64,000 bases of DNA from an uncultured Alphaproteobacteria bacterium (GTDB lineage Bacteria > Pseudomonadota > Alphaproteobacteria > JAPOUT01 > G958296285): contig OY282459.1 of the NCBI GenBank assembly GCA_958296285.1, forward strand, positions 1,282,762 to 1,346,761, in the 5' to 3' direction. The position numbers and the translations under genes were made by a program. Positions within the stretch are counted from its first letter, which is position 1, and the number at the start of each line of letters is the position of its first letter. The notes under the pieces are model-generated. The model was not told the DNA's origin. It searched no databases and saw only the letters and a list, made by a program, of their open reading frames with translations. Positions 5,027 to 61,200 of the stretch are shown piece by piece.

Positions 5027-5523
5027 CGGGCTTTATCCAAAATCTTATGCAGAAGCGCGAAACCGGCGATGACGGTTTCGGCGCGAACCTCGGCGCGTCC
5101 TTTGTTTGGAAAGCGGCAGAGTTCATTCAAGGTCAGGCTTTTCGCGGCGGCGGCGATATGCACCAAACCCGGCGGATGGGTCTCGCTTCCCCCGGGGCCT
5201 GCCACGCCTGTCACGGCAAGGGCGACATCCACCCCTGCCGCGCGCAGCGCGCCCTCCGCCATGGCGCGCGCGACTTCCTCGCTCACCGCGCCATGCTCTT
5301 GAAGCAGGTTTTTTGGGACGCTGAGAAATTTCATCTTCGCTCTGTTGGAATAGGTGGAGAAGCCGCAGTCAAAAACGCGGGAGGATCCGGGAATATCGGT
5401 CAGAGCCGCGCTGATAAGACCGCCCGTGCAGGATTCGGCTGTCGCGAGTCTCAGACCCGCCTCCTCCATGCGTTTGAGAATCTCGCGCGCTTGTCCTTCG
5501 GTTTCTCGCGGCAGAGCGATCAT
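5023..5523 (-). CDS. CinA C-terminal-domain protein (nicotinamide-nucleotide amidohydrolase PncC-like)
   Basis: Motif TAESCTGGLISAALTDIPGSS is characteristic of the CinA/PncC domain. Confidence 0.85.
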   Translation of the reverse strand: MIALPRETEGQAREILKRMEEAGLRLATAESCTGGLISAALTDIPGSSRVFDCGFSTYSNRAKMKFLSVPKNLLQEHGAVSEEVARAMAEGALRAAGVDVALAVTGVAGPGGSETHPPGLVHIAAAAKSLTLNELCRFPNKGRAEVRAETVIAGFALLHKILDKAR

Positions 5524-6305: not shown

Positions 6306-8231
6306 ATGCGGGCGGGACTATCGCATAGGGGTCTTGTCATGCTGGATCGCCTCAGACGCGCCACCGCCCATTGGATGGCGCGCATTCTGATCGGATTGTT
6401 GGCGCTGAGTTTCGCCTTTTGGGGAGTCGGCGATCTTGTCGCGCCGTCTCGTGATCCGGCAATCGCCGAGGTCGGGGACGCCGTCATTCCGCAGACTGTC
6501 TTCCAGCGCTCGCTAAACATCCTCCGCGAAAATCTGCGACAGCAGGGGCGCGCCCTCGCTTTTGACGAAATCCGCCAACTCGGACTGGATCGGCAGGTTC
6601 TGAACCTGCTGACTCGTCAAGAAGCGCTGTCGCTCGGGGCGGCGGCGCTGGGTCTGGACATTTCAGACAGGCGAATCGCCGAGGAAATCCGCGATGATCC
6701 CGCCTTCCAAGGACCTTTCGGCGGATTTGATCGGCAGACCTTCCGCGTGATTCTCGCCGAAGCGGGCTTGAGCGAGCAGCGATTCGCCGAAGAGCGCCGC
6801 AAAGTGCATCTGCGCCGCCAACTCGCCGCGACTGTCCTCGCCTCGCCCCCCGCCTCCGATATTCTCGCCCGCGCGCTCATCAAGCACAGTTTGGAAAAGA
6901 GGATTTTGGAATATGCCCTCCTCCCGATCTCTCTCGCGCCGAAGCCAAAGAGCCCAAATGACGAAACGCTCAAAAAATTCCTAACCCGCGAGCCTTCTCT
7001 CTTCATTCGCCCTGAGCGGCGCGACATTCTTTTGTTGGAGCTGAAGCCGGAGCATTTTTTCTCGTCTCTCGCCGTCTCCGAAGACGAAATCCGCGCCGAT
7101 TACGACGAGCGGCGCATGAGTTTCCGAACCCCTGAAAAGCGCGAAGTAGAGCAAATCATCTTCGCCTCGCGCGATGAAGCCGATGCCGCCCATGCCCGCC
7201 TCAAGAAGGGCGTCTCTTTCGCCGCGATCGCCGGCGAGAAGGGTTTGTCGGAGGAAGATCGGAATCTGGGGCTTCTCTCTGAGCGGGAGTTTTTGTCGCC
7301 CTCTTTGGCGGAAGCGGCTTTCGCTCTCAAAAAGGGCGAAGTGAGCGCTGTCGTGGAGGGGCCTTTGGGGCCGGTTCTGCTGCGAGTTGCCAAAATCGCG
7401 CGAGGCGAGGAGCGAAGCCTCGCTTCCGTCCGCGATCGCGTCAGGAGAGACATTCTGCGCCGCAAATCCGCCGGCGAGATGGAGACCATGCGAAATATCG
7501 TGGAAGACGCGCTGGCAGGGGGCGCGTCTTTGCGCGAAGCGGCGTCTGATCATTCGCTGCCGATCTCGGAACTGAAGGGCGTCTCCGCCGATGGAACAAG
7601 CGCGAAAGGCGCGAAACTGCCCGAGAGGGAGGGGCTGCTTGCCGCCGCCTTCGCCGCCGCGGAACATGAAGAGAGCGCCGCGCGAGAAATGGAAGAGGGC
7701 GGATATTTTTGGCTGGAAGTGGAAAAAATCCATCCCTCGCGCATTCCGTCTTTTGACGAGATTAGGGACGAAGCGCGGAAAATCTGGCGGAAGGAAACGC
7801 GGCGTCTCGCTCTCATTCGGCTCGCGGCGGATCTTGCCGAGCGCGGAAATGGGGGCGAAGATTTGCGCGATCTTCTCAAGAAATATGACCGCGCGCCGTT
7901 GAAGACGCCCGAAATTGGTCGTTTTTTCCGAAGCGATGTTTTTTCGGCGGAGCTTGTGGAGGCGGCTTTCGCAAGACCCGAAGGTCGTTTTGTCGCCGGC
8001 TCTGCCGAGATCGGCGACAGCGTGGTTCTTGTTCGGACGGCGAAGATCGTCAAGCCCTCCCCTTCCCGCGAAGAGGAGAGCGCTTTTAGAGACGCGCTTG
8101 GCGCGCGCTTGGCGAATGAGTTTTTGGAGCAATATGTCGTTTTTCTTTTGGAGCGTTATGGCGTTGTCGTTCACGGCGATGTTTTGGAGAGCGCGGTTCT
8201 GTCTGGCGGCGGCGGCTTGCTCGCGCCATGA
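6306..8231 (+). CDS. ppiD: periplasmic chaperone/peptidyl-prolyl isomerase PpiD-like (SurA N-domain, N-terminal membrane anchor)
   Basis: N-terminal TM helix WMARILIGLLALSFAFWGVGDLV followed by a long SurA-like body. Start moved to MRAGLS (6306) to avoid overlap with divergent tpiA. ppiD-trpE adjacency is common in alphaproteobacteria. Confidence 0.75.
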   Translation: MRAGLSHRGLVMLDRLRRATAHWMARILIGLLALSFAFWGVGDLVAPSRDPAIAEVGDAVIPQTVFQRSLNILRENLRQQGRALAFDEIRQLGLDRQVLNLLTRQEALSLGAAALGLDISDRRIAEEIRDDPAFQGPFGGFDRQTFRVILAEAGLSEQRFAEERRKVHLRRQLAATVLASPPASDILARALIKHSLEKRILEYALLPISLAPKPKSPNDETLKKFLTREPSLFIRPERRDILLLELKPEHFFSSLAVSEDEIRADYDERRMSFRTPEKREVEQIIFASRDEADAAHARLKKGVSFAAIAGEKGLSEEDRNLGLLSEREFLSPSLAEAAFALKKGEVSAVVEGPLGPVLLRVAKIARGEERSLASVRDRVRRDILRRKSAGEMETMRNIVEDALAGGASLREAASDHSLPISELKGVSADGTSAKGAKLPEREGLLAAAFAAAEHEESAAREMEEGGYFWLEVEKIHPSRIPSFDEIRDEARKIWRKETRRLALIRLAADLAERGNGGEDLRDLLKKYDRAPLKTPEIGRFFRSDVFSAELVEAAFARPEGRFVAGSAEIGDSVVLVRTAKIVKPSPSREEESAFRDALGARLANEFLEQYVVFLLERYGVVVHGDVLESAVLSGGGGLLAP

Positions 8232-9772
8232 GCGCCCCTTTCCCTGACGCCTCCGCTTTCCGCGACATTCACAATGCAGGCAAGACGCAGATCGTTCGGC
8301 TGACGCTGCCTGCCGATTTGGAAACGCCTGTCGCCGCGATGATCAAATTGGCGGCGGGGAAGCGCGGCGCGTTCCTTTTTGAATCGGTGGAGGGCGGAGA
8401 GGCTCGCGGACGCTATTCCGTCATCGGCTTCGCGCCGGACGCCATTTGGCGATCTTACGGCGCGAGATGCGAGATCAATCGGCAGGCGGCGCGAGACCCT
8501 GACGCTTTTGAGATTTTGAAAGAGCCGCCTTTGGACGCGCTTCGCCGTTTCATCGCGGAGTCGCGTTTTGATCTGCCTGACGGTTTGCCGTCTTTGTCGG
8601 CGGGTTTGTTCGGCTATATGGGCTACGACATGGCGCGTCATGCCGAGCGTTTCGGGTCTCCGCCGCCTGACGCGATTGGCATTCCGGACAGCGTTTTCGC
8701 GCGTCCGTCTCGTCTTGTGGTTTTTGATTCGGTCAGCGACACGATGATTTGCATTGTTCGCTCGTCTCCGCGCCGGGGGCGCTCGGCTGACGAGGCTTAT
8801 GACGAAGCCTGTCGCGCTTTGCGCGAGATGCGGACGGCTTTGCAGAGGCCTCTGATGCCGAAGGAGCGCGGCGAGGATAGCCAGAGCGATGAAGGCGATG
8901 AAAGCGGCGGGGGCGGCGCGTCTTCGTCTGTTTCCATGCCGGTGCCGCGGTCCAACATGCAGCGCGCGCTTTATTTGGAGAAGGTTCGGCGCGTTAAGGA
9001 GTATATTTTCGCTGGCGACATTTTTCAGGCTGTTTTGAGTCAGCGTTTTTCGGCGTCTTTTTCGCTTTCGCCCATGACGCTGTATCGGTCTTTGCGGCGG
9101 ATAAATCCGTCTCCTTATCTTTATTATTTGGATTTTGGGGATTTTTCGGTTGTTGGCTCAAGTCCTGAGATTTTGGTTCGGCTGCGCGAGGGCGTGGTGA
9201 CGATTCGTCCGATTGCCGGGACTCGTCCGCGCGGGGGGTCGGCGGCGGATGATCTTCGCATTGGCGAGGAGTTGTTGTCGGATCCGAAGGAGCGCGCCGA
9301 GCATTTGATGTTGTTGGATTTGGGTCGGAATGATGTTGGGAGGGTATCGGAGATTGGTTCTGTTCGCGTGACGGAGCGTTTCGCGCTGCAGCGGACGTCT
9401 CATCTCATTCACATTGTTTCCAATGTTGAGGGTGTTTTGCGGCGCGGTTTGGAGGCTTTGGACGCTTTGATGGCGGGTTTTCCTGCTGGGACGGTTTCGG
9501 GCGCGCCGAAGATTCGGGCGATGGAGATTATTGATGAGTTGGAGGATGAGAAGCGGAGTTTATATGCGGGGGCGGTGGGGTATTTTTCGGCGAATGGGGA
9601 TATGGACAGTTGCATTGCCTTGCGGACGGCGTTGGTTAAGGATGGGGTGATGTATGTTCAGGCGGGGGGTGGGATTGTGGCGGATTCGGAGCCTGCTTAT
9701 GAGTATCGGGAGTCTGTGAAGAAGGCGGAGGTTTTGTTTCGGGCTGCTGAGGCTGTTGGAGGCTCCCGTTGA
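8228..9772 (+). CDS. trpE: anthranilate synthase component I
   Basis: 514 aa, chorismate-binding C-terminal domain. The last codons (GGSR-stop) lie inside repeat module X. Confidence 0.93.
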   Translation: MSAPFPDASAFRDIHNAGKTQIVRLTLPADLETPVAAMIKLAAGKRGAFLFESVEGGEARGRYSVIGFAPDAIWRSYGARCEINRQAARDPDAFEILKEPPLDALRRFIAESRFDLPDGLPSLSAGLFGYMGYDMARHAERFGSPPPDAIGIPDSVFARPSRLVVFDSVSDTMICIVRSSPRRGRSADEAYDEACRALREMRTALQRPLMPKERGEDSQSDEGDESGGGGASSSVSMPVPRSNMQRALYLEKVRRVKEYIFAGDIFQAVLSQRFSASFSLSPMTLYRSLRRINPSPYLYYLDFGDFSVVGSSPEILVRLREGVVTIRPIAGTRPRGGSAADDLRIGEELLSDPKERAEHLMLLDLGRNDVGRVSEIGSVRVTERFALQRTSHLIHIVSNVEGVLRRGLEALDALMAGFPAGTVSGAPKIRAMEIIDELEDEKRSLYAGAVGYFSANGDMDSCIALRTALVKDGVMYVQAGGGIVADSEPAYEYRESVKKAEVLFRAAEAVGGSR

Positions 9773-10070
9773 GGGGGGTTTGGGGGGGCGGCGAGCCGCC
9801 GCGGGCATCTTTTTCATAGAGAGGCATTTTGGCTTTACCCCAGGGGAACTAATGCATAGAAGCTTGAGGTGAAGGGGGGGTTGGGGGGCTTGCCCCCCAA
9901 GAAAAACCAAGCGGGCGCAAGCCCGCTACGGGCGGCGGGCTTCTCGCGCACTTGCGCTACGCGCTGCGTGCGCTTCGTTGCGCCACGCCCGCCGACCTTT
10001 TCGGGGGGGATTCCCCCCGACCCCCCCTTTCTCAAGGGGGGCTAGCCCCCCTTGACCCCCCTCAAGAGGT
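9773..10070. repeat. Repeat cluster A: module X (+) about 9786-9880, degenerate Z-like palindromes about 9905-9995, module Y (+) about 9995-10065
   Basis: Near-identical copies of X and Y recur at 17390-17547. Multiple G6-N-C6 micro-palindromes (ggggggattcccccc, aaggggggctagccccccttg, ggggggcttgcccccc). No coding potential. Confidence 0.85.
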
Positions 10071-10084
10071 GCTATAGTCGCCCC

Positions 10085-10672
10085 ATGATCCTCCTCATAG
10101 ACAACTACGACTCCTTCACATACAACCTCGTCCATTTCCTCGGCGAACTGGGCGCCAAAACCAACGTCCAACGAAACAACGCCACATCAGCATCAAAAGC
10201 CCTCGCCAAAAAACCCCAAGCCATCATCATCTCCCCAGGACCCAAAACCCCAAACGAAGCAGGAATATCCCTAAATCTCATAAAAACCGCCGCCAAACAC
10301 AATATCCCAACCCTCGGCGTCTGCCTCGGACACCAAACCATCGGACAAGCCTTCGGCGCGAAAATCACCCGCGCCATCCCCACCCACGGCAAAATCAGCG
10401 CCATCAACCACAACAGCAAAGGAGTCTTCCAAAAACTCCCCTCACCCCTCCAAGCCACCCGATACCACTCCCTCATCATAGAAGAAAATACGCTGCCCCA
10501 ATGCCTCGCCATCACCGCGAGAACATCAGACGGAACAATCATGGGAATCCAACATAAAACCCTCAACGCCCACGGAGTCCAATTCCACCCCGAAAGCATT
10601 GAAACCGAACACGGACACAAAATCCTCCAAAACTTCCTCAAACTCGCAGGAATAAAAGGAATAAAAAAATGA
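10085..10672 (+). CDS. trpG: anthranilate synthase component II (glutamine amidotransferase)
   Basis: MILLIDNYDSFTYNLVHFLGELG, catalytic GVCLGHQ motif. Start set at MILLID (10085), not the upstream ORF-track start. The coding strand is extremely C+A-rich and G-poor. Confidence 0.93.
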   Translation: MILLIDNYDSFTYNLVHFLGELGAKTNVQRNNATSASKALAKKPQAIIISPGPKTPNEAGISLNLIKTAAKHNIPTLGVCLGHQTIGQAFGAKITRAIPTHGKISAINHNSKGVFQKLPSPLQATRYHSLIIEENTLPQCLAITARTSDGTIMGIQHKTLNAHGVQFHPESIETEHGHKILQNFLKLAGIKGIKK

Positions 10673-11694
10673 GCGAAAACCTCAAAAAAACCCTCGCGCT
10701 TATCGCGTCAGGCGAAAAACTCGCGCCCGCCCAAGCCGAAACCGCCTTCCAACATCTCATGTCCGGCGAAGCCAAAGACGCCGAAATCGGCGCGCTCCTC
10801 ATGGGACTCCATATGCGCGGCGAAACAACAGACGAAATCGCCGCCGCCGCCAAAATCATGCGCGCCGCCGCCACGCCCGTCCAAGCCCCGAAAAACGCCA
10901 TAGACCTCTGCGGAACAGGCGGCGATATGAAAGGAAGCCTCAATATCTCCACCGCCGCGTCTTTTATAGTCGCCGCCTGCGGCGTCCCGGTGGCGAAGCA
11001 CGGAAACCGCGCGCTCTCGTCTCAGTCAGGCGCGGCGGACGTCCTTTTGGCGCTCGGCGCTGAAACCGCCCTCCCGCCCCAGACCATCGCCCAATGCATC
11101 AAGGAAACGGGCATCGGCTTCCTCTTCGCGCCCTCGCACCACCCCGCCGCGAGACATGTCGCGCCGGCGCGCGCGGCGCTCGGCATCAGGACAATCTTCA
11201 ACCTCCTCGGACCTCTCTGCAATCCCGCCTTCGTCAAACGGCAACTGATCGGAGTCTTCGCGCCCGAATGGCTGACGCCCCTCGCCGAAGTGCTGCGCGA
11301 TTTGGGAAGCGAGCGCGTTTGGATCGTTCATGGCTCGGACGGGATGGACGAAATCACCCTTTCCGGCGAAACCCGCGCCGCCGAACTCAAAAACGGCAAA
11401 GTCCGCCCCTTCACGATCACGCCCGAAGAAGCAGGACTTCCTCGCGCTCCATCGGAGAGTCTCAAAGGCGGGACGCCTCAACAGAACGCGGCGGCTCTGC
11501 GGAGACTGTTGGACAGCGAAAGCGAAAACGGGGCTTATAGAGACGCTGCCGTTCTGAACGCGGCGGCGGCGCTCGTCATCGCGGAGAAGGCAGGAGATTT
11601 GCGCGAAGGCGCGGCGCAAGCCTCCGAATCTCTTTCCAGCGGACGCGCCGCCGACACCTTTCACGCCTTTCGCAATTTCACGAAGAAGCCATGA
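10669..11694 (+). CDS. trpD: anthranilate phosphoribosyltransferase
   Basis: Motifs DLCGTGGD and SSQSGAADVL, length 341 aa. Confidence 0.93.
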   Translation: MSENLKKTLALIASGEKLAPAQAETAFQHLMSGEAKDAEIGALLMGLHMRGETTDEIAAAAKIMRAAATPVQAPKNAIDLCGTGGDMKGSLNISTAASFIVAACGVPVAKHGNRALSSQSGAADVLLALGAETALPPQTIAQCIKETGIGFLFAPSHHPAARHVAPARAALGIRTIFNLLGPLCNPAFVKRQLIGVFAPEWLTPLAEVLRDLGSERVWIVHGSDGMDEITLSGETRAAELKNGKVRPFTITPEEAGLPRAPSESLKGGTPQQNAAALRRLLDSESENGAYRDAAVLNAAAALVIAEKAGDLREGAAQASESLSSGRAADTFHAFRNFTKKP

Positions 11695-14614: not shown

Positions 14615-15985
14615 TCACAGCAGAAAATACGCCGCCAAGCCCAAAAAGGCGAAAAAGCCGACAACATCCGTGACTGTCGTCAAAAACACGCCGGACGAAA
14701 TGGCGGGATCGGCGCCGATTTTCTCTAATGCCAGAGGGATCAGAATTCCAGCGAGCGCGGCGGTCAGCATATTGACAATCACGGCGGCGAAAAGAACCAT
14801 CCCAAGCGCGAAATTCTTAAACCACGCGCCTCCAATCACCCCCAAAATCACGGCAAGCGATACGCCATTCAGAACTCCCACGCCGATCTCGCGCATGATG
14901 ATCCTGCGCTGATTCGCCGCGACAAGCTCGCGAGTCGCCAGCGCGCGCACGGCGACGGTGAGAGTCTGAATGCCCGCCACGCCTCCCATGGACGCCACGA
15001 TCGGCATCAGAACCGCCAGCGCCACCATTCCGGCGATCGCGTCCTCAAAAAGCGCGATGACGACAGACGCCAAAATCGCCGTCATCAGATTGACGAAGAG
15101 CCATAAAAAGCGTCTGCGCGCCGATTCCAGCACCGTGCCGGAGAGTCTGTCGCGTCCGACTCCGCCGAGCCTCTTGATGTCTTCGCTCGCTTCTTCGGTG
15201 ATGACTTCCACGATGTCGTCCGCCGTGATCATGCCCATCAGCATGCCGTTCTGATCCACGACGGGCGCGCTGACCAGATTATATCGGCGGAAGGCTTCGG
15301 CGACATCTTCGCGGTCTTTATGGGCTTCTATCTTGAGAGGCTCGCCCTGCATCAGGCTGTTCAGAGACTCTTCGCGCTTGGCGCGGACGAGGCGGCTCGT
15401 CAAGACGCTTCCGATGAGTCTCCATGTCGGGCTGACGATATAGATTTCGTAGAAATCCTTCGGGAGTTCGGCGCTTTGGCGCAGATGGTCTATGACGCGT
15501 CCTACGCTCCAGAAGGCGGGGACGGCGACCAGATCGCGCTGCATGAGGCGTCCTGCGCTGTCTATCGGGTAATCCAGTCCGCGCTCAATATCGGAGCGCG
15601 CGCGGAGGGGAACGCGATCTAGGATATTTCTTCGGCGGGTTTCGTCCAGCCCTTCCACGAGGGCGAGCGCGTCATCGGAGGCGATTGTGGCGAGGGCGGG
15701 CGCGAGTTTTTCGGGGGCGAGGAGCGGGAGGATATCGGCGAGGACGCCTTCTTCCAGTTCCGAGAGGATTTCGGGCTTGAGTTCGTCATTGAGGAGGGTG
15801 ATGAGTTTGTGTCGTTCTTCGGGTTTGAGGAGTTCTAGGATTTCGGCGGCGTCTGCGGCGTGGAGTTCGTGGATTTGGTTTTGGAGTTTCGCGCGATGTT
15901 CCGCGGTGATGGCTTCGCGCGTTTCTTGGAGGATATTTGGGACGGGCGTTTCGGTGGGTTCCGTGGTGTGGGGGGGATTAGACAT
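14615..15985 (-). CDS. mgtE: magnesium transporter MgtE
   Basis: 456 aa, with MgtE N-domain, CBS pair and a C-terminal TM domain containing PIVASMGGVAGIQT-like motifs. Confidence 0.9.
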   Translation of the reverse strand: MSNPPHTTEPTETPVPNILQETREAITAEHRAKLQNQIHELHAADAAEILELLKPEERHKLITLLNDELKPEILSELEEGVLADILPLLAPEKLAPALATIASDDALALVEGLDETRRRNILDRVPLRARSDIERGLDYPIDSAGRLMQRDLVAVPAFWSVGRVIDHLRQSAELPKDFYEIYIVSPTWRLIGSVLTSRLVRAKREESLNSLMQGEPLKIEAHKDREDVAEAFRRYNLVSAPVVDQNGMLMGMITADDIVEVITEEASEDIKRLGGVGRDRLSGTVLESARRRFLWLFVNLMTAILASVVIALFEDAIAGMVALAVLMPIVASMGGVAGIQTLTVAVRALATRELVAANQRRIIMREIGVGVLNGVSLAVILGVIGGAWFKNFALGMVLFAAVIVNMLTAALAGILIPLALEKIGADPAISSGVFLTTVTDVVGFFAFLGLAAYFLL

Positions 15986-16096
15986 ACGCCGCGCCTTTTT
16001 TGCTTTTTTGTCTGTGGCGTATATTTAGCCTATGGGGGCTGATTTATAAAAGCCCCCGACTCTTTTGGATCGGGGGCGAGTTTGTGAGATTTTGTT

Positions 16097-16426
16097 CTAG
16101 GATGCTAATTTGAGAAGGATTGCGCCTGTCAGAGTGAAATTCGCTATCATGAAGGTGATGGTGACTCCGAACATCCATTTTAGCAGGCGCATGTCGGCTT
16201 GGACTTCTCCGAAGCGTTTTTCCATGTCTATTCTGAGTTCTCCGATCTGCGCGTTCATATCGGCGCGGAGTTCTCCGACCCGTTCTTCCACGTTCCGAAG
16301 CCGTTCTTCTATGTTCCGAAGCCGTTGCTCATCGCGGTTGGCTTCCAGCGCTTCTATAGCGGCGGTGGCTTTGTGATCGCTGACTTTCGCTTCTTTGAGG
16401 GCATCATAGACTGCGACGAGGCTCAT
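16097..16426 (-). CDS. DUF1640-like coiled-coil protein with C-terminal membrane anchor
   Basis: Heptad-like repeats (LRNIEERLRNVEERVGELRADMNAQIGELRIDMEKRFGEVQADM), then LLKWMFGVTITFMIANFTLTGAIL hydrophobic tail. Internal nucleotide direct repeat ttccgaagccgttcttc x2. Confidence 0.6.
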   Translation of the reverse strand: MSLVAVYDALKEAKVSDHKATAAIEALEANRDEQRLRNIEERLRNVEERVGELRADMNAQIGELRIDMEKRFGEVQADMRLLKWMFGVTITFMIANFTLTGAILLKLAS

Positions 16427-16489
16427 GGTTTATCTCCTTATGGTTGTGTTTTTGTAGCATTTTTGGTTCTTCTGCCGCAATCTTTAGAA

Positions 16490-16650
16490 GAAAGAAAAGG
16501 GGGGTGTGGGGGGTCGGAGACCCCCCGCGAAAAAGGGGGGATCGGGGGGATTCCCCCCCGAAAAGCGCGTGGGTGGGGTGGGGAAAAGAGCATTTGCGAG
16601 CGAAGCGTAAGCGTAGCGAGCAAATGCGACCCCACCCACGCGCCCCCTGC
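16490..16650. repeat. Repeat cluster B: G6/C6 micro-palindromes plus a module Y fragment (about 16500-16560) and module Z (- orientation, about 16565-16645)
   Basis: The Z copy gcgcgtgggtggggtgggg...gcatttgcgagcg...cgagcaaatgcgaccccacccacgcgcc is the reverse complement of 17302-17393. Z is itself an imperfect ~90-nt palindrome. Confidence 0.85.
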
Positions 16651-16672
16651 TCGCAGGAGCTACTGATTCAGA

Positions 16673-17131
16673 TCAAAGATCGCCAAGCCTGCGCCGAAAC
16701 ACTTCATCAAACTTTTCTAATCTCTCCTTGAACCAAGCATATTGCGCGCATCTGTGGTTCATATTTTCCCAATCAGCTTCCTCTTCCCAGCTTTGGGTAA
16801 TAGATGGGAATCCCCATTGCAGTGGTGGAGGTGTGCCAATTTCCCTCTCAATGGCTTCTTTATCTGCATGCAGTTGGTTAAAACATTCCTTAGCGTAAAG
16901 CATGTCGGTGTCGGGGACAGGAAAACTTTTGCCATAGATAGAAAACCTAACAGCTACCTTGCGCGGCGGCGTCTTATAAAAACACGCCCATATGCGAAAG
17001 CCTGCTCTCCCCATAGAGAATCCTAGAGTGCTGCCAGACGACCGACAACGCCCGCGCCCAATATGTGAGTCAGACGCTCTGAGGCACTTAAGCAAACCTT
17101 GCCAATAGAGGCGGTGTTCTTCTTTAGACAT
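16673..17131 (-). CDS. hypothetical protein, DUF4268-like; low-GC (~47%) islet gene
   Basis: 152-aa ORF with a clean start 18 nt downstream of the tRNA-Leu 3' end. GC is far below surrounding DNA, and the ORF sits between inverted Z elements. Confidence 0.55.
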   Translation of the reverse strand: MSKEEHRLYWQGLLKCLRASDSHIGRGRCRSSGSTLGFSMGRAGFRIWACFYKTPPRKVAVRFSIYGKSFPVPDTDMLYAKECFNQLHADKEAIEREIGTPPPLQWGFPSITQSWEEEADWENMNHRCAQYAWFKERLEKFDEVFRRRLGDL

Positions 17132-17149: not shown

Positions 17150-17236
17150 TGGTGCGGTCGAGAAGACTCGAACTTCCACGGGGTTGCCCCCACAGCGCCC
17201 TCAACGCTGCGCGTCTACCTATTCCGCCACGACCGC
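17150..17236 (-). tRNA. tRNA-Leu (anticodon GAG), 87 nt with long variable arm, CCA encoded
   Basis: Reverse complement GCGGTCGTGGCGGAATAGGTAGACGCGCAGCGTTGAGGGCGCTGTGGGGGCAACCCCGTGGAAGTTCGAGTCTTCTCGACCGCACCA folds as a cloverleaf with anticodon loop TTGAGGG. Confidence 0.85.
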
Positions 17237-17279: not shown

Positions 17280-17547
17280 GCTAGAAATCTTGCGAACAGG
17301 GGGCGCGTGGGTGGGGTCGCATTTGCTCGCTCGCTACGCCACGAGTGGCTTCTCTTCGCTCGCAAATGCTTTTTTCCCCACCCCACCCACGCGCTTTCGG
17401 GGGGATTCCCCCGAACCCCCTTTCTCAAGGGGGGCTAGCCCCCCTTGACCCCCCTTCACCTCAAGCTTCTATGAATTAGTTCCCCCTGGGGCAAACCCAA
17501 AATGCCTCTCTATGAAAAAAATGCCCGCGGCGGCTCGCCGCCCCCCC
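17280..17547. repeat. Repeat cluster C: module Z (+, about 17302-17393), module Y (+, about 17393-17455), module X (-, about 17451-17547)
   Basis: X(-) is the reverse complement of 9786-9880 with few mismatches. Y is a direct copy of 9995-10060. X abuts and extends into the cysH stop codon. Confidence 0.85.
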
Positions 17548-18312
17548 TTAACGGGAGCCTCCATGAATCCCGCACTCCTCCTTCTCTAAACCACCCCATC
17601 TACCATCACGATACGAACCCCCCGAACCAACAGAAGCCGTGCAAGGAACACACCCTATAGACAAATACCCACGCTTCACCAACGGATGAACAACCAAACT
17701 ATGCCGCTCAACATAAGAACCAAGAGCCTCCTGATCCCAATCCACAAGAGGATTAATGGAAAACCGCGCCACGCTCCCCGCCATCTCCCGAAACTCTATC
17801 GCCTCCAAAATCGCCCGACTCGCCGTCTGAAAACGCTTCCGACCCGTGATCACCGCCTCAAATCCCCCCAACGCCCGCCGCAACGGCAAAACCTTCCGAA
17901 AATGACAGCAAGCGTCAGGATCCTCGCTCCAAAGAGAACCATCCGAATCCAACCGCGCCCGATCCACAGGATCAGGACCAATGGAACGCAAATCCGTCAA
18001 ACCCAGCCGATCCTGCAATAAATCACGATAGCGAAGAGTCTCCGGAAACAACTTCCCCGTATTCAGAAAAATCACGGGAACAGACGGATCAATCTCCGAA
18101 ACCATATGCAGCAAAACCACCGACTCCGAACCAAAAGACGAAACCACCGCAATCCTGCCCGGAAAAACCTCCTTGATCATCGCCTCAAGAAGAGGCTTGC
18201 CGGACAGCGCATATTCACGCCGCAACATCTCAAGACGCGCCGCCGCCTCGGCAGGAACCTCCCCCGAAGCGCGAGGCATCGGAATCTCGGCGCGATTCTC
18301 TAAACCAGCCAT
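17548..18312 (-). CDS. cysH: phosphoadenylyl-sulfate/adenylyl-sulfate reductase (thioredoxin-dependent, Fe-S type)
   Basis: PAPS-reductase fold (SFGSESVVLLHM), CC...CxxC cysteine pairs (ACCHFRKV, CVPCT) and C-terminal ECGIH motif. The coding strand is extremely G+T-rich. Confidence 0.88.
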   Translation of the reverse strand: MAGLENRAEIPMPRASGEVPAEAAARLEMLRREYALSGKPLLEAMIKEVFPGRIAVVSSFGSESVVLLHMVSEIDPSVPVIFLNTGKLFPETLRYRDLLQDRLGLTDLRSIGPDPVDRARLDSDGSLWSEDPDACCHFRKVLPLRRALGGFEAVITGRKRFQTASRAILEAIEFREMAGSVARFSINPLVDWDQEALGSYVERHSLVVHPLVKRGYLSIGCVPCTASVGSGGSYRDGRWGGLEKEECGIHGGSR

Positions 18313-18845
18313 TTTTGATCCTCCATCATCGCGCGGCTTTTCTCACGGACAGCGCTCGGCGCTAATCCCTGATCGCGCCACCGATCCCGCGCCGCCGACA
18401 GCGCCAACAAACGATCGCGCCATTCCGCCCCATAATGGCGAGAGAGATCATCACGAAGCATCCGCGCCGCCGAAGGCGATCTGCCTCCGGTGGAAACGGC
18501 GAAAAGCAAATCCCCTCGCCGCAAAATGGACGGAACATGAAAATCGCACAAAGCCGGAATGTCTTCTGTGTTGACAAGAGCGCCGACAGCGCGCGCGCGA
18601 GCCGCGAGCGGACGGGCTTCCTCTTCCGAAAATCCCGCGATGAACAGAATCGCGCCGCGCATCTCCTCATCTTTCGGAAGACGCCGCCGAATCGGAAAAC
18701 TCATCAGAGCCTCACCGCGCGGCGCGTAGATTTCCGCCTCCATCTTTGCCGCTCCGATGAGCCGACAGCGTTTTAACAGCGGCTCGCCCTCGCCAATGAG
18801 GAGAATCTTTTTCCGATTCGGGTTAAGGACGATCGGCAGCATCAT
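18300..18845 (-). CDS. standalone siroheme-synthase N-terminal domain (precorrin-2 dehydrogenase/sirohydrochlorin ferrochelatase, SirC/Met8-like)
   Basis: Rossmann-like LLIGEGEPLLKRCRLIGAAKM, then motif PSILRRGDLLFAVSTGGRSPSAARMLRDDLS as in the CysG N-domain. Adjacent to cysH. Confidence 0.65.
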   Translation of the reverse strand: MMLPIVLNPNRKKILLIGEGEPLLKRCRLIGAAKMEAEIYAPRGEALMSFPIRRRLPKDEEMRGAILFIAGFSEEEARPLAARARAVGALVNTEDIPALCDFHVPSILRRGDLLFAVSTGGRSPSAARMLRDDLSRHYGAEWRDRLLALSAARDRWRDQGLAPSAVREKSRAMMEDQKWLV

Positions 18846-19531: not shown

Positions 19532-21522
19532 CCGAAGCGCAGAATCGGATCGTCCAGCGCGAGACTCTGTCCCTCCTCGCAGAAAATCTCTTTGACGACA
19601 GCGTCTTGCTCAGCGAAGAGGATGTTCTCCATCTTCATCGCCTCCACGACCGCGAGAGGCTGTCCCGCCTCCACGCGATCCCCCGCTTTGACATGAAGTT
19701 TCACGAGCTGCCCCGGCATCGGACAGAGAAGCCTGTCGGTCTTTTCCGAAGCCTCTCTCTTCGGCAGACGCGCTTCAAGCGCCGCCTGAAGCGGCGACAT
19801 CACCCGAAAGACGAACCGCGCCCCGCCATAGGACAGAATCCAAGATTGATCGCTGCGGCGAATCTGCATCAGAATCGTTCTGCCGTCCAGCTGACCGTGG
19901 AAAAGCCGCGCCCCAAACCGCCAATCGCTCTGAATCTTTCGCGTCAACCGTCCCGCGCCGTAGACGCTCGCGCCGTACGCCAAGCCCCCTTCCCTCTCCG
20001 AGACGGCGAATTCCTCGCGCGTCTCGCCTTCCATGACGGCAAGATGTTTCGGCATTCTCGCCCGCAATGGCAGCGCCGCCTCCTGACGCGCGCGCTTGAT
20101 GTTCTGCCATTCGGCGAAAAGCGCGACAGCGCGAGAATCTCTTCGCAAAACTTCCTCCTCCGTCTCGGCTTTAAAACCCTGCGGATATTCTTCTTCTATG
20201 AAAGATGTGGAGAGATCGCCCGCCGCGAAGCGCTTATGCGCGAAAATCGCCGACAGAAACAGACGATTATTCGGAAAGCCTTCCAACTCCAACCTCTCCA
20301 GCGCGGAGAGGATGGTTTTTCGCGCCGATTCCCTGTCCTCGCCCCAAGAGCAGAGTTTCATGATCATCGGATCGTAATAGACGCTGATCGCGTCTCCCTC
20401 TTCCACGCCGCTGTCTATGCGGACGGTCTGGCTCTCGTCAGGCGGACGGCAGCGCGAGAGCGTTCCGGTCTGAGGCAGAAAGCCGCGCTCAGGGTCTTCG
20501 GCGCAGAGCCGCGCCTCAAAAGCCCAGCCGGTGAAGCGGACGTCATTCTGCGTCAGACGCAGAGGCTCATCGGCGGCGATCCGAATCATCTCCTCCGCCA
20601 AATCCAATCCGGTGATGAGTTCGGATACGGGATGCTCCACTTGAAGCCGCGTATTCATCTCAAGGAAGTAAAAGACCTTATCCCGCCCGACCACGAACTC
20701 CACCGTCCCGGCGCTGTCATAGCCGACCGCCTTCGCCAACAGCAGCGCCTCTCTGCCCATCGCCTCGCGCATCGTCTTATTGAGCAGAGGGCTCGGCGCT
20801 TCCTCTATGATCTTTTGGTTGCGCCGCTGAATGGAACATTCGCGCTCGCCAAGATGAACGGCAGCGCCGCGCTTGTCGCAGAGAATCTGAATCTCAATAT
20901 GGCGGGGGTTCTCAATATATTTCTCCACGAAGACGCGCCCGTCTCCAAAAGACGCCTCCGCCTCGCGCCTCGCGGAAGCGGCAGCCTCAACGAGATTGTC
21001 GCCTTGACGCGCGATTCTCATGCCCTTGCCGCCGCCGCCCGCCGCCGCCTTGATCATCACCGGATAGCCTATCGTTTCGGCGATGGCGCCGATCTCGTCC
21101 GCGCTTGTCAGAGCGTCTTGATGGCCCGGGATCGTGGAGACGCCCGCCTTTTTCGCAAGAATCTTGGATTCAATTTTGTCGCCCATTCGCGCGATGGCTT
21201 CGGCGTTCGGTCCGATGAAAGCGATGCCTTCCCTCTCGCAATCTCTTGCGAAATCGGCGTTTTCGGAAAGGAAGCCATAGCCCGGATGAAGCGCTTCCGC
21301 GCCTGTCTGACGCGCCGCCTCCAAGATTTTCTCCCCGCGCAAATAGGATTCCGCCGCCGCCGCGCCCCCGATGAAAACCGCTTCATCCGCCATCGCGACA
21401 TGAAGCGCGCGGGAATCGGCGTCAGAATAAACGGCGACAGTCTTGACGCCCATCCGCCGCGCCGTCTTGATGACGCGGCAGGCGATCTCTCCTCGGTTGG
21501 CGATCAAAATCTTCTTAAACAC
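19528..21522 (-). CDS. pccA: propionyl-/acetyl-CoA carboxylase alpha subunit (biotin carboxylase + biotinyl domain)
   Basis: MFKKILIANRGEIACRVIKTARRMG, ATP-grasp region, C-terminal biotinyl motif EAMKMEN. Directly upstream of the carboxyltransferase gene. Confidence 0.9.
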   Translation of the reverse strand: MFKKILIANRGEIACRVIKTARRMGVKTVAVYSDADSRALHVAMADEAVFIGGAAAAESYLRGEKILEAARQTGAEALHPGYGFLSENADFARDCEREGIAFIGPNAEAIARMGDKIESKILAKKAGVSTIPGHQDALTSADEIGAIAETIGYPVMIKAAAGGGGKGMRIARQGDNLVEAAASARREAEASFGDGRVFVEKYIENPRHIEIQILCDKRGAAVHLGERECSIQRRNQKIIEEAPSPLLNKTMREAMGREALLLAKAVGYDSAGTVEFVVGRDKVFYFLEMNTRLQVEHPVSELITGLDLAEEMIRIAADEPLRLTQNDVRFTGWAFEARLCAEDPERGFLPQTGTLSRCRPPDESQTVRIDSGVEEGDAISVYYDPMIMKLCSWGEDRESARKTILSALERLELEGFPNNRLFLSAIFAHKRFAAGDLSTSFIEEEYPQGFKAETEEEVLRRDSRAVALFAEWQNIKRARQEAALPLRARMPKHLAVMEGETREEFAVSEREGGLAYGASVYGAGRLTRKIQSDWRFGARLFHGQLDGRTILMQIRRSDQSWILSYGGARFVFRVMSPLQAALEARLPKREASEKTDRLLCPMPGQLVKLHVKAGDRVEAGQPLAVVEAMKMENILFAEQDAVVKEIFCEEGQSLALDDPILRFG

Positions 21523-44845: not shown

Positions 44846-44996
44846 GAAAGACAGCCTCCAAAAAGGCAAATGCAGCCAGGTGGAGCATTAACTCGCTCCA
44901 GCAGACCGTGACAGCCACAGCCTTCCCGACCACAAAAGGAAATTTGGCGCGGCTAACGCCGAAAGTCAAGAACAAAAGCCGAAAGCAACGACAACA

Positions 44997-55421: not shown

Positions 55422-56180
55422 TCAGCCCTTCTCCACTTGATTGTATCCGAGCTCCACCGGCGTGGATCTGCCGAAAATGGAGACCGAAACTTTTAACCGC
55501 GAGCGCTCCACATCCACATCCTCCACAACGCCGTTGAAGGAGGCGAACGGCCCGTCCGAAACGCGAACCTGCTCGCCGATGGAGAAAATGACCGAAGGGC
55601 GGGGTCTGTCCACGCCCTGCCGCATCTGCCCCAAGATTCTATCCACCTCGCCCTGCGACAGAGGCTGCGGGGAATCGGCGTCCCCCAAAAAGCCCGTCAC
55701 GCGAGGCAGATTGCGTATGAAATGCTGCGTCTCTCCGTTCATCTCCATTTTTAGAAGCAGATAGCCAGGGAACAATTTGCGCTTGACCTCTTTATTTTGC
55801 CCGCGCCGCATCTCCAGCACTTCCTCCACAGGCACGAGCATTTCGTCAAAATACTCCGCCAAGCCTTGAGGAACCATGCGCTCCTTTATGGTGTCGCAGA
55901 CGCGCTGCTCAAAATTGGATTGCGTATGCACGATATACCACGCCTTCTTCTCGTCTTGATCTTCGCCGTCAGGCTTGTTGCCCGCAGGTTCGCCCGAGGG
56001 CTCGCCGCCGGCAGGCTTGCCGCCGGCAGGTTCGCCCGAGAGCTCGCCAGAGGGTTCGCCGCCGGCAGGTTCGCCGCCAGCAGGCTCGCCCGAGGGCTCG
56101 CCGCCGGCAGGCTCGCCCGAGAGCTCGCCGCCTGCGGCTTCGCTCGGCAGTTCTTTCTCAACCTTATCGCTGTCGGTCAT
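55422..56180 (-). CDS. nusG: transcription termination/antitermination factor NusG with ~80-aa acidic ([10 protein letters not shown])n N-terminal repeat extension
   Basis: NGN core [17 protein letters not shown] and KOW motif. Start at MTDSDK; the ORF-track upstream Gly/Phe-rich extension is rejected. Confidence 0.9.
55975..56160. repeat. in-frame 15-nt tandem repeat array inside the nusG 5' region, encoding ([10 protein letters not shown])n
   Basis: Direct repeats ggttcgcccgagggctcgccgccggcaggc... visible in the sequence. Confidence 0.8.
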
Positions 56181-58253: not shown

Positions 58254-61200
58254 TCAAAATGCTCCTGCAACGCCAAAACGAATGAAACGATCCGAAGAGC
58301 CTCTGATATGCCCCGCTTCCCTATGCCAGCCCGCCGAAATCTTCATAGAAACCCCATCCGACAACGGCTTGACATAAAGCGCCTCCAAGTGAATCGCCCG
58401 CCCGGAAGGTTTTAAAGACCCCTCTGCCCTCTGATCAATGAGAGACCCGTCTCGGCGGCGGGAAACGGCGTAATCCAAGGCGAAGCCGCCCTTCTCCACC
58501 CGCAAAGGCTGACGCGCGCGCAGGGCGATCCAATCTTCCTGCGAGAAAACGCCGCGCTTGCCCAAGCCCGCCGTGAAAGCGCTCATCACGATCGGGCCTT
58601 TTAACGACAAAAGCGAAACGCCGTCAATCTTCGGCGACATGAAGCCCGCCTCGGCGCTGATAAAGAGATGCCAGCCGCGCGCGAGCGCCTTCTCATGCGA
58701 GACGCCAAAAAACCAATTTTCTCGCGCGCCGTCCGCATGGAACGCGCCATCGCTCCAGCCCCCCAAAAGCCGATCTTCCTCGCGCAAAAGTCCGGCATGA
58801 AGATTCCAGCCCTCCCAAGCGAAATGCGCCAGCAAAGCGTATGAGGCTTTTTCTTCGCGGCTCGCGTCCCGCGCGTGATCCTGCCAGAGAGGCTTGCCTG
58901 AAAAAAGACCAAGATTCATAGAATAATCGCCGCCCTCCCAAGACAGCCCCGCGCCCACGCCATCGGCGATCAAAGAAAAATGCGCCGGAGACCTCTCGCG
59001 CCAAAGAGGCGACCGCGTCTCCGCCGCCATCAGAGCGGCGGGATGCTGAATGCCGAAAACCCGCGCCCCCAAAAGACGATAAGGCTCAACGCGGCGCTTC
59101 GCGCCGAGCGGTCTCAGAAAATCCCCCATCGCGTCAGGCGCGGCAAGGCTGAAATAACGACCAAGAGACGAATAAAAGGGCGCGCTCAACGCGTCAAACC
59201 GCGCGATGATCCTGCCCCGCAAAGCGCGGGCGAGACTGTCGCCGAGAGCCGGCGGCGCGACAAAGAAACTCTCCGCCGACAAAAAGGACGCTCTTGAGCC
59301 GCCCGCCCCCGCCGCCCCGCTCATGGAAGTCGCGCCGACAGGACGAGTCGCGGCGTCTATGTCTAAAAGCCCATGCCCGTAAATGTCGCTGTCGGCATAG
59401 ATGCCGGAACTGTCCGCCGTCTGCAGCAGACGCCATGCCAATTCCGGCGCGCCCATCGTGTCGCCGAAGGCTTCCATCAGGATCGCCAAAGCGCCCGCCA
59501 CATGCGGCGCGGCGAAAGAGGTGCCTTGCACAAGAACATCCGCGCGATCCGTGCCTTTCGCCGACACGCCTTCTCCGAAAGCGGCGAGACACCACTCCTT
59601 CGCATGACCGCATTTGTGATAGTTCGGAATAAGAGCCCCTGCCGTGTAGCGGGTTCTCGCTTCATTCAGAACCCTCCGCAGGGCGACAACGGCGAGGATC
59701 AGAGGCCTGTTCCTGTCCGCGCCGAGAAGATCGGGGAAATAGAAGGGCGTGTCGGAGAAGAGTCGGGGATGATCTTCATCCCAGCCGGGCCCTATAATCA
59801 TCCCTTCAGGGTTTCGAATATCCTCTGCGATATTCCCTGCGGAATAGACATAGACCGTCCTGTCCTCTTCGGGCGTATCATTTTGGCGGAAGACCTCATA
59901 ATAGTTGATGCTCGGGTTATTGATTCTTGCCTTTATCCTCGCTATCTCGCTTTCGGTGGCGGTCTCATAGTCGGCGATCACAATTTGCGTGATACCGTCA
60001 AAGAAGAGGATAGACTGGCTGACATTGACGATCTTCACATGATTTTGGAAATAGGCGAGACCGCTGGTGCTGGCCGTTGTTCCTGAATGGAGGAGAATCT
60101 TGGCGTTGAAAGCGATTCCATGAAAATCGGTGAGGCTGCCGCCGGCATCCCCCCTCTTCGCCGCGACAACGCCGCTCACGTGATTCCCATGCAGCAAAGT
60201 GATGCCGCTGTTCATGCCCACCAAGATTTCGCAATCTGTCGCGCTCGCGACCGTGCCGGCGGCAGGGCAATTCCTCACGCGGATCAGATCGGTATAAAGA
60301 CCATCGCTCGCCTGCGCATCGGTCAGAAGCGTCCGCCCTGCAGGAAGGCGGAATTGTTGGGCTGTGATCGTCGTTTCCATGGTGACGGGATCGGTGTTCG
60401 TTTCGCCTATCGCGCAATTGGTCGTTGTCGGCGTGGTGACGTCGGCGGGATTGAGCGCCGCGCCGGTGCAATTGTCCGCCGGCAGATAATATCTGTCCAC
60501 GCCCAACACTCCCCTGTCATGGGCGACGGTGAGCCTGCCGGCATAAGCGTTCACGAGAGAGGCGTCCCAGAGATGTCCCTCCAGCACGCCGACCGTCTGC
60601 CCCGCGCCGGTGAAGCCTCGCGCATAGGCTTCGGCGGCGCCGGACGCCTCAAAGCCGGGCTGCGTGCGATATTCCTGCGTCCTCCAAAAAACCGCCGAGC
60701 GAGAGAGCGTAGGCACGGTGATGCTCCAAACCTTCTGCGTGGCGTGTTTTGTCAGCGTGAAGCCGCCTAGAGTCGTGAGATCGCCCACGGTGAAGGTTCC
60801 CGTCCCGGTGAAAAGATTGATGACCGTCCCTGAGGCGGTGCTGGAGGGAAGGCTTACGCGGAGATTCCCCTTCAACGTCACATTCGCCGCGCCGAAATCA
60901 AGAAGCGCGGTCGCGCCTGACGGAAGGACGCGAATCTGAAAGGTCAGTTCGCCGCCGTCATTTTGCAAAAAAGTCTCCAAACCCTGAATCGCGAGCCTGC
61001 TGCCCATGATCCGAAGGTTCAGATCGCCGCTGTTGGTGAAACTGTCGCCCGTGCCGCCGCCGAAATTGGCATTGGCGGTCAGAGTCATGCGGGCGTCCGC
61101 CATATTGGTGACCGTGTCGCTGCCCGCGCCGAGGTCAAAGCCGCCGATGAAAGCGCCGTGATTGTTAAAAACATCCGCCGCGCCGCTCGCCGTGATGCTG

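Follow-up and report, generated by a model that had tools for sequence, protein, structure and literature searches.

Shared ends of trpE and cysH

The window analysed here is a 64,000-nt stretch of contig OY282459.1 from an uncultured Alphaproteobacteria bacterium, and coordinates refer to it unless another locus is named. It carries genes in an alphaproteobacterial order (ppiD-trpE-trpG-trpD-trpC-moaC-moeA, then DUF1489, mgtE, tRNA-Leu and cysH on the other strand), two of which, trpE and cysH, end in the same nucleotides and run into related repeated DNA, a composite repeat element whose ends are the subject of this report. The trpE gene (8228-9772, +) encodes component I of anthranilate synthase (514 aa), as recognized from its open reading frame (ORF), its orthologues and a match to NCBIfam TIGR00564 (model positions 1-454 of 455, residues 29-507). 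The cysH gene (17548-18312, -) encodes a 254-aa member of the PAPS/APS reductase family, identified from its ORF, a profile match and solved homologues. The glutamine amidotransferase gene trpG (10085-10672, +) has its 5' end towards the repeat that follows trpE, referred to below as element 1.

The 13-mer GGAGGCTCCCGTT has two exact copies in the window, at 9758-9770 (+) and 17550-17562 (-), and was found in none of 100 dinucleotide-preserving shuffles. At both places its last T opens the stop codon of the long ORF. The trpE end (9752-9772, +) reads GCT GTT GGA GGC TCC CGT TGA, with TGA at 9770-9772 closing the 514-aa frame, and the cysH end (17568-17548, -) reads ATT CAT GGA GGC TCC CGT TAA, with TAA at 17550-17548 closing the 254-aa frame; including the stops, the shared segments span 9758-9772 (+) and 17548-17562 (-). 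Both proteins end in GGSR, a tail that in CysH stands directly after the catalytic ECGIH motif. The common GGSR-stop ending reported in the initial annotation is present as described. The identity of the last 14 nt, also claimed there, holds for the bases upstream of the stop (TGGAGGCTCCCGTT) but not for the stop codons themselves (TGA versus TAA). Homology does continue past the stop, as had been proposed, in inverted arms that are 95% complementary over 65 nt (9782-9846 / 17483-17547) and 79% complementary over 72 nt (9827-9898 / 17430-17501).

Both gene ends adjoin a module of about 95 nt, termed X, whose two copies lie in inverted orientation 7.6 kb apart. Copy 1 (CGGCGAGCC...CATAGAAGCTTGAGGTGAA, then G7TT; 9789-9882, core 9789-9873, +) is set between GGGGGGTTTGGGGGG and GGGGGGGTTGGGGGG, two near-identical G-run motifs. 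Copy 2 occupies 17455-17547 (-; core 17540-17455 by our reading, followed by G6 TCAA and preceded by G7 at 17547-17541), and its 5' hairpin is weakly terminator-like. In the trpE copy only, an additional GGGGGGTTT separates the stop from X. A second type of tip, (CA)TAGAAGCTTGAGGTGAA, is formed by the 3' end of X, and in two other genes its TAG falls on the stop codon. An exact 21-mer from X had no match in 185,579 representative genomes, and a degenerate 22-mer had none in the JGI metagenomes.

For comparison, the same region was available from a sister strain (L001; L002 from another sample) and from L003, a syntenic relative free of the repeat, together with six further loci of the lineage of about 20 kb each (L107-L112), five of them on a 1.72-Mb contig (L106 is the L107 region from another sample). 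The best TrpE matches were P0001 (98% identical, on a 1,723,605-bp ENA contig) and P0002 (64%, the level of identity of the L003 relative), all others being at most 61% identical. In L003, TrpE ends in AAKTAHLFDGS and CysH in ECGIHVPASSAPKTSPR, 13 residues beyond ECGIH, and the trpE-trpG spacer is 45 nt long and contains no repeat. The 23 further TrpE orthologues examined (57-61% identical) carry 3-20 unrelated residues, commonly 8-11, beyond the conserved RAAEEA helix, and none of them ends in GGSR; alignments to solved CysH homologues reach ECG(L/I)H and at most two more residues. The expectation that C-termini would differ where the repeat is lacking was borne out in L003, and all 23 TrpE orthologues have other tails too. 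Also, the tail codons GGA GGC TCC CGT have A or C at three of their four third positions, amid a stretch with 93% G or T. These sequence comparisons support the view that the terminal codons and stops of trpE and cysH derive from a repeat element rather than from ancestry. The earlier proposal, that a repeat insertion replaced the native C-termini and stops, stands in so far as a repeat supplies these codons, but not in naming X as the supplier.

The trpE of L001 and L002 has an identical tail (GGAGGCTCCCGTTGA) and no X, GGGGGGTTT and the hairpin GGGGGGCTAGCCCCCC following directly. Since X in the window is flanked by near-identical G-run motifs and is missing in L001 and L002, it represents an insertion or deletion difference between strains that are about 99% identical. 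Moreover, X occurs without GGAGGCTCCCGTT in front of it at L001 18507-18615 and at L109 ~9700-9790 and ~10930, one of the L109 copies lying downstream of zapA. As judged from these alignments, X is an optional block nested just inside the tip, and not the supplier of the terminal codons.

A composite repeat and the genes that end in it

To describe the repeat, every G-run hairpin of the lineage was listed with its context over about 150 kb of non-redundant sequence, which yielded 29 outer termini. From the outside in, an element end consists of a tip (C/G)GCTCCCGTTRA, a G6 run, TCAA or TTT, the hairpin GGGGGGCTWGCCCCCC, a spacer, a G5-7 run, the hairpin GGGGG-AWW-CCCCC and long internal palindromes. 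The hairpin GGGGGGCTWGCCCCCC is closed by the TTGA or AAA that matches the preceding TCAA or TTT, as a compensatory variant pair. The opposite end is the reverse complement, and complete elements measure about 310-330 nt. The base before the G-run is A in 29/29 termini and the one preceding it A or G in 28/29, G-T dominates at positions -5/-4, and tips of the GCTCCCGTTRA class account for 12 of the 29. The inverted-repeat arms of four elements are imperfect (26-54 nt, 74-85% complementary): 9762-9789 (left, +) and 10045-10072 (right) in element 1 of the window (79% over 28 nt), 2549-2585 / 2824-2860 (76%) and 7661-7686 / 7947-7972 (85%) in L109, and 19806-19859 / 20078-20131 (74%) in L107.

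Element 1 makes up the entire trpE-trpG spacer (9762-10072), with X nested inside and the right arm ending 12 nt before the trpG ATG. Inward of X it contains the hairpin GGGGGGCTTGCCCCCC (9883-9898), a tetraloop hairpin AGCGGGC-GCAA-GCCCGCT (9910-9927), an internal palindrome (9930-9996) and hairpins at 10003-10018 and 10036-10051. A left-type half-element lies at 16490-16660 (+) and comprises G-run hairpins (16508-16559) and a long palindrome arm (16555-16658), and the inner part of the cysH-side element occupies 17280-17454 (-), with palindrome arms at 17288-17404 and hairpins at 17399-17412 and 17429-17444. The tip, or leader, is GCTCCCGTTGA (9762-9772) beside trpE, whose final three codons and stop fall within it, and GCTCCCGTTAA (17558-17548) beside cysH. 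Its fold is a mini-hairpin, CTCCC/GTTGA/GGGGG, whose loop holds the stop codon, and the pairing of CTCCC with the G-run would explain why C-rich bases persist in the tip.

The TRA of the tip is the stop codon of seven unrelated genes in the roughly 150 kb of the lineage, in a single frame in 7/7. Besides trpE and cysH (both GGSR), these are xth (LGSG), an acyltransferase gene (GRSR), the prephenate dehydrogenase gene (RRSR), ymdB (PSSR) and a metX-metW fusion (TRSS). The initial annotation had counted two affected genes, which proved too few: at least seven unrelated genes stop in the same tip. Seven other tip copies are intergenic, several of them abutting a native stop (bioB, pcnB, DAHP synthase). 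Full-length NCBIfam models stop 1-7 residues short of the C-terminus in TrpE, CysH, MetW, prephenate dehydrogenase and Xth; because the profiles end at or just before the tip-encoded residues, the element appears to sit at the edge of the conserved core, where it would have replaced a dispensable tail.

We therefore read the GGSR-stop ending of trpE and cysH as the outermost 11-12 nt of the terminal inverted repeat of a lineage-specific composite repeat resembling a miniature inverted-repeat transposable element (MITE). The probability that we give this account as a whole, that is the origin of the tip, the anatomy of the element and the borrowed stop, is roughly 85%. It builds on what is demonstrated: how the element is organised, that the codons come from a repeat, that seven genes use them, and that relatives have differing tails. 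The tip would lie flush with the conserved protein core, one of its frames encoding (Arg/Gly/Ser)-Ser-Arg-stop, so that the repeat contains the end of the host gene, which would have lost its own stop and dispensable tail. With a tip at both ends, one element between convergent genes could terminate both. The tip may have been inserted at or into the 3' end of the gene, or an unstable element boundary may have suffered one small deletion after another until the tip reached the protein core, the route being something that we infer; by either route only in-frame junctions would survive. For annotation, this means that the last codons and stop of many housekeeping genes in this lineage belong to a repeat, and that the C-termini there are not orthologous.

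Several points weigh against this account. The extra loci were reached through a family of small ORFs adjoining the elements, and the 7 tip-ended genes among about 16 element-facing gene ends are therefore not a genome-wide estimate. The single frame at all seven junctions is not predicted by simple random insertion, and selection for the shortest tail has to be assumed. The comparison with a repeat-free relative covers trpE and cysH, and tail replacement in the other five genes would follow from where their profile alignments end. Mobility would follow only from copy number and from the presence of X in one strain and not in another; the 99%-identical strains have whole elements in common, X being the one part of these that differs. 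Finally, the bases outside both tips of four elements showed no direct repeat that could be a target-site duplication, for which reason the element is called MITE-like and not a MITE. Its size (about 310-330 nt), its multiple copies and the lack of any ORF called inside complete elements agree with MITEs.

Other explanations of the shared ends were weighed on the same evidence. The tips of trpE and cysH are probably sister copies, since these two genes share five more bases (TGGAG) and both carry X. This sharing beyond the family consensus, with the inverted orientation of the copies, also agrees with a gene conversion, or an inversion-type recombination, private to the two inverted copies, which lie 7.6 kb apart; this would have homogenised the two ends as a local accident. 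Such an event is possible, if doubtful, and it may account for the extra five bases, but not for the phenomenon, because five more genes, at unlinked loci on the 1.72-Mb contig, also end in this tip. Erosion of stop codons is improbable. Under this explanation, A-to-G pressure near the element (TAA, TAG or TGA to TGG) would have let frames run on to the first stop kept by the repeat, which suits the low content of A on that strand (only 2.4% of four-fold sites), the rarity of stops in every frame and the long spurious ORFs on the G/T-rich strand (10105-10641 and 9560-9910, both -). Yet TrpE and CysH are shorter, not longer, than their orthologues past the last conserved motif, the family profiles end 1-7 residues before the C-terminus, and erosion predicts all three frames where the seven junctions use one.

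That module X itself carries the terminal codons, its insertion having replaced both C-termini, would fit the position of X after both gene ends of the window, with 95% identity over 65 nt. This is nevertheless very improbable, being refuted by the X-free trpE of L001 and L002 with the same tail, and contradicted by the X copies that lack GGAGGCTCCCGTT in front and by the five other tip-ended genes, where X is absent. A tail selected as a functional peptide or as a termination-context signal, gained independently by each gene, is scarcely credible. The constant frame and the recurrent S-R-stop speak for it, but the same nucleotides are conserved in intergenic copies as well as in coding ones, variants encode SG-stop and SS-stop, and the pairing of CTCCC with the following G-run points to a constraint on nucleic acid rather than on protein. 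The composite repeat thus remains the preferred source of the terminal codons.

With respect to known repeats, the element forms a new family within a kind already on record, repeats overlapping the 3' ends of genes having been described before; the constant tip and frame are particular to this family. The REP/BIME repeats of enterobacteria and the RIME repeats of rhizobia are mosaic clusters of short GC-rich palindromes found at gene 3' ends or between convergent genes, and they vary between strains. The present element resembles both in its mosaic of GC-rich palindromes at gene 3' ends and between convergent genes and in varying between strains. Unlike them, it forms units of about 310 nt bounded by inverted repeats, with a stop codon inside the element; the GTAG that precedes the imperfect palindromes (20-40 nt) of the REP type is absent, GT(T/G)RA and G6 standing in its place. 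Rickettsia palindromic elements, reportedly described by Ogata and colleagues in Science in 2000, are said to lie in frame inside ORFs and to be translated as internal segments. The likeness to these is a selfish palindromic repeat within housekeeping coding sequence of an alphaproteobacterium. The difference is that the present element contributes no more than 3-4 terminal codons and a stop: each of the seven overlaps is terminal, and no internal in-frame insertion of the Rickettsia type was seen. In Coxiella burnetii, QMITE1 reaches 2-50 bp into the C-terminal codons of functional genes, among them ubiB, pntAA and mutT, and it is likewise non-coding, a few hundred nucleotides long and present in tens of copies with inverted ends (PMC5896051). 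The present element differs from QMITE1 in having no flanking direct repeats, a constant 11-12-nt tip in one frame, ends with G-run hairpins and a polar mutational footprint in its flanks.

Searches of the two repeat clusters against Rfam gave no match at the gathering score, and a permissive scan of 9700-10150 gave sub-threshold chance matches only. A scan for sigma-70 promoters found nothing in the clusters, and a terminator scan found weak terminator-like hairpins only, including the 5' hairpin of X at cysH. The hairpin pattern TTTCGGGGGN{3,7}CCCCCGANCCCCC is found at more than 100 loci in other taxa (a Magnetospirillum metagenome-assembled genome, Ca. Viridilinea, actinomycetes), which proved to be unrelated repeat families with no flanking bias. 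Among these taxa, Magnetospirillum sp. genome XM6_XAHMGE1bin.13 has an unrelated MITE of about 190 nt with inverted ends TTAACAGGRTGCGGAAAAAC (L040 ~850-1040 and L046 ~5290-5480); the end of the L040 copy contains the TAA stop of the upstream gene, an independent case of a repeat tip supplying a stop, and the bias in its flank is faint at most.

Polar strand bias outside the element ends

The flanks of the elements are compositionally skewed. On the + strand, G+T amounts to 0.65-0.70 at 8900-9900 and 15600-16200 and to 0.25-0.33 at 10000-10900 and 17400-18300, the mean of the window being 0.49 (standard deviation 0.06). To the left of element 1 the skewed flank covers 8800-9757 (+; G+T 0.65-0.70), and to its right trpG and the start of trpD (10085-10950, -; + strand G+T 0.25-0.31, the - strand being G/T-rich). 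Outside the left-type half-element it covers the 5' part of mgtE (15500-16100, +; G+T 0.65-0.71), and beyond the cysH-side element it runs from cysH into the next gene (17563-18400, -; + strand G+T 0.29-0.35).

At third codon positions, G+T increases in trpE from 0.55 to 0.93 towards the element, is 0.06-0.07 throughout trpG, recovers in trpD from 0.20 to 0.44 with distance from the element, starts at 0.17 at the 5' end of mgtE and then rises, and is 0.84-0.91 throughout cysH. In the L003 orthologues it is 0.39-0.61, with no trend. Codon usage is thus flipped within one operon (trpE 93% G/T versus trpG 94% A/C at third positions), and also within bioB and the DAHP synthase gene, which have an element at each end. 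Amino-acid replacements track the same direction, and the bias shifts the composition of housekeeping proteins (TrpG, TrpE, CysH, MgtE, BioB, DAHP synthase).

At the other loci of the lineage, most clusters of G-run hairpins show the bias again, and 26 of the 29 termini have a biased outer flank (three do not). Four-fold degenerate sites were pooled over 17 gene ends, 12 facing the element with their 3' end and five with their 5' end. On the strand pointing into the element these sites have A 0.024, C 0.089, G 0.585 and T 0.303, the background being A 0.046, C 0.418, G 0.404 and T 0.132. Third-position G+T on this strand is 0.82-0.94 in 17/17 gene ends and the bias decays over about 1 kb. It is the same whichever direction the gene is transcribed, and it is absent in the repeat-free relative L003. 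It is also one-sided, being found only outside the terminus and on the same strand as the spacer G-runs; half-elements standing alone have a single biased flank, and left-type and right-type termini in one locus are equally biased. In the literature searched, no published description of such a polar bias at repeat ends was found, and we regard this near-saturated bias as the most interesting result of the analysis.

The element ends would thus mark a polar zone of about 1 kb, within which the inward strand has about 90% G+T at synonymous sites as the footprint of recurrent single-strandedness (deamination-type C-to-T and A-to-G changes). We put this reading, taken jointly as zone and single-strand footprint, at even odds, the mechanism being what we infer from composition. 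The loss of C and A, graded with proximity, fits recurrent exposure of the strand in single-stranded form over as much as about 1 kb, most often beside the element. Possible triggers are arrest of the polymerase at the G-run and hairpin end, with a gap in the daughter strand on its far side, resection in the 5'->3' direction from a nick or break at the tip, and nick-directed mismatch repair. There are four G5-7 runs within about 50 nt on the inward strand, for which the G-quadruplex option of ViennaRNA gives two-tetrad quadruplexes under an energy model not validated for DNA.

Other causes were considered for the bias. Transcription-coupled asymmetry or R-loops and translational codon selection are both out, because genes facing the element with their 5' end (trpG, mgtE, bioB, DAHP synthase, HAD hydrolase) have a coding-strand bias opposite to that of genes facing it with their 3' end. 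Outward strand-displacement synthesis, outward promoters and misinsertion of G opposite T during gap filling all predict the opposite polarity. Horizontal transfer of biased segments is rejected because of the smooth gradients, the synteny with L003 and the flips within genes, and an assembly artefact because of the recurrence of the pattern in three independent assemblies with intact ORFs. Ongoing hypermutation finds no support in the divergence of the flanks between the 99%-identical strains, which is not raised; this fits also a biased process at equilibrium and is not decisive.

Strand asymmetry of this kind has precedents. In animal mitochondrial DNA, the strand that is long single-stranded is enriched in C-to-T and A-to-G changes, graded with exposure. 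In yeast, a poly-G run causes 'mutation at a distance', raising the rate of nearby substitutions through a single-stranded patch of 0.8-3 kb (PMC4928981). Unlike in mitochondria or at the yeast poly-G run, the bias reported here affects many sites on a bacterial chromosome, follows the polarity of the repeat ends and is saturated at synonymous sites. The RRS elements of Escherichia coli are GC-rich with G-runs on one strand, and single-stranded gaps occur where the G-strand is the template, greatest beside the element and trailing up to 2 kb (10.1101/2023.10.01.560376; PMC13308219; PMC10287960). RecA loading peaks at the RRS and falls off over about 2 kb (10.1101/2023.10.01.560376; PMC13308219). 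The bias in the present lineage has the same side, strand and length scale as these gaps. Several points count against a simple parallel with the RRS. There are two RRS per genome, with an effect in vivo only when the G-quadruplex strand is the lagging-strand template (10.1101/2023.10.01.560376; PMC13308219; PMC10287960), whereas both orientations in one locus are equally biased here. Also, no compositional bias is seen beside either RRS of E. coli (L113 7019-7289 and L114 5116-5387), where flanking G+T is 0.41-0.59; this pair, beside lysO and dusC in strain K-12, is a 272-nt match of 94% identity.

Essential genes beside an element end appear to be under a strong mutational regime imposed by that end, specific to one strand and graded with distance. 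If recurrent or programmed single-stranded gaps are indeed the cause, nature would offer in this lineage about a dozen skewed sites in 150 kb, and presumably many more genome-wide. These could then serve to test how structured repeats make single-stranded DNA, how long such DNA lasts and at what cost, a question that the RRS work, with two sites per genome, has just begun to open. The lineage would also be a natural example, across a whole bacterial genome, of 'mutation at a distance' induced by repeats.

Long ORFs run antisense to trpG (10105-10641, -) or to the trpE 3' end (9560-9910, -), or through repeats (16199-16666, +). They are not genes but arise because stop codons are rare on the A-poor strand, and when such flanks are annotated, long antisense frames are to be treated as artefacts. 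At about 8870-8940, where the strand bias starts, TrpE has a lineage-specific Gly/Ser/Asp/Glu-rich insert (QSDEGDESGGGGASSSVSM) that is absent from orthologues of 500-505 aa. Weaker G+T-rich patches with no G-run hairpin nearby occur at L108 12900-13400, 14600-15100 and 19200-19800, in a lower-GC island with defence-type genes (HNH-methylase, SIR2, RmuC, Tle1-like); these may be relics of lost elements or unrelated.

Neighbouring and other features

A multicopy family encodes small coiled-coil proteins of 80-145 aa that have a hydrophobic C-terminus and match DUF7310/CCDC90-like models weakly, with copies at 16097-16426 (-) in the window and at L001 17878-18395, L107 10001-10914, L109 9290-10714 and L112 9481-10372. 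The 36 database matches of the family are all from this lineage, at about 15 copies per genome, and the copies lie inside or beside repeat clusters, often in tandem.

The segment beside the 3' end of tRNA-Leu(GAG) (17150-17236, -) lies between two half-elements and has a GC content of about 50%. It holds a DUF4268 ORF in the window (16673-17131, -) and a glutathione S-transferase gene in L001 (18764-19438), although the strains are 99% identical, and L003 has the tRNA alone. This segment looks like a small integration hotspot.

Elsewhere in the window, a lower-GC stretch beside rpoC (44873-44932, -) matches the DUF3800-VI RNA motif of Rfam with 40.6 bits, the gathering score being 35. A coding tandem repeat with 12/15/27-nt spacing and units of the GCCGGCAGG type lies at 55964-56144. 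Finally, an ORF of at least 1912 aa with internal repeats of about 590 nt extends over 58254-63992 (-) and runs past the end of the window.

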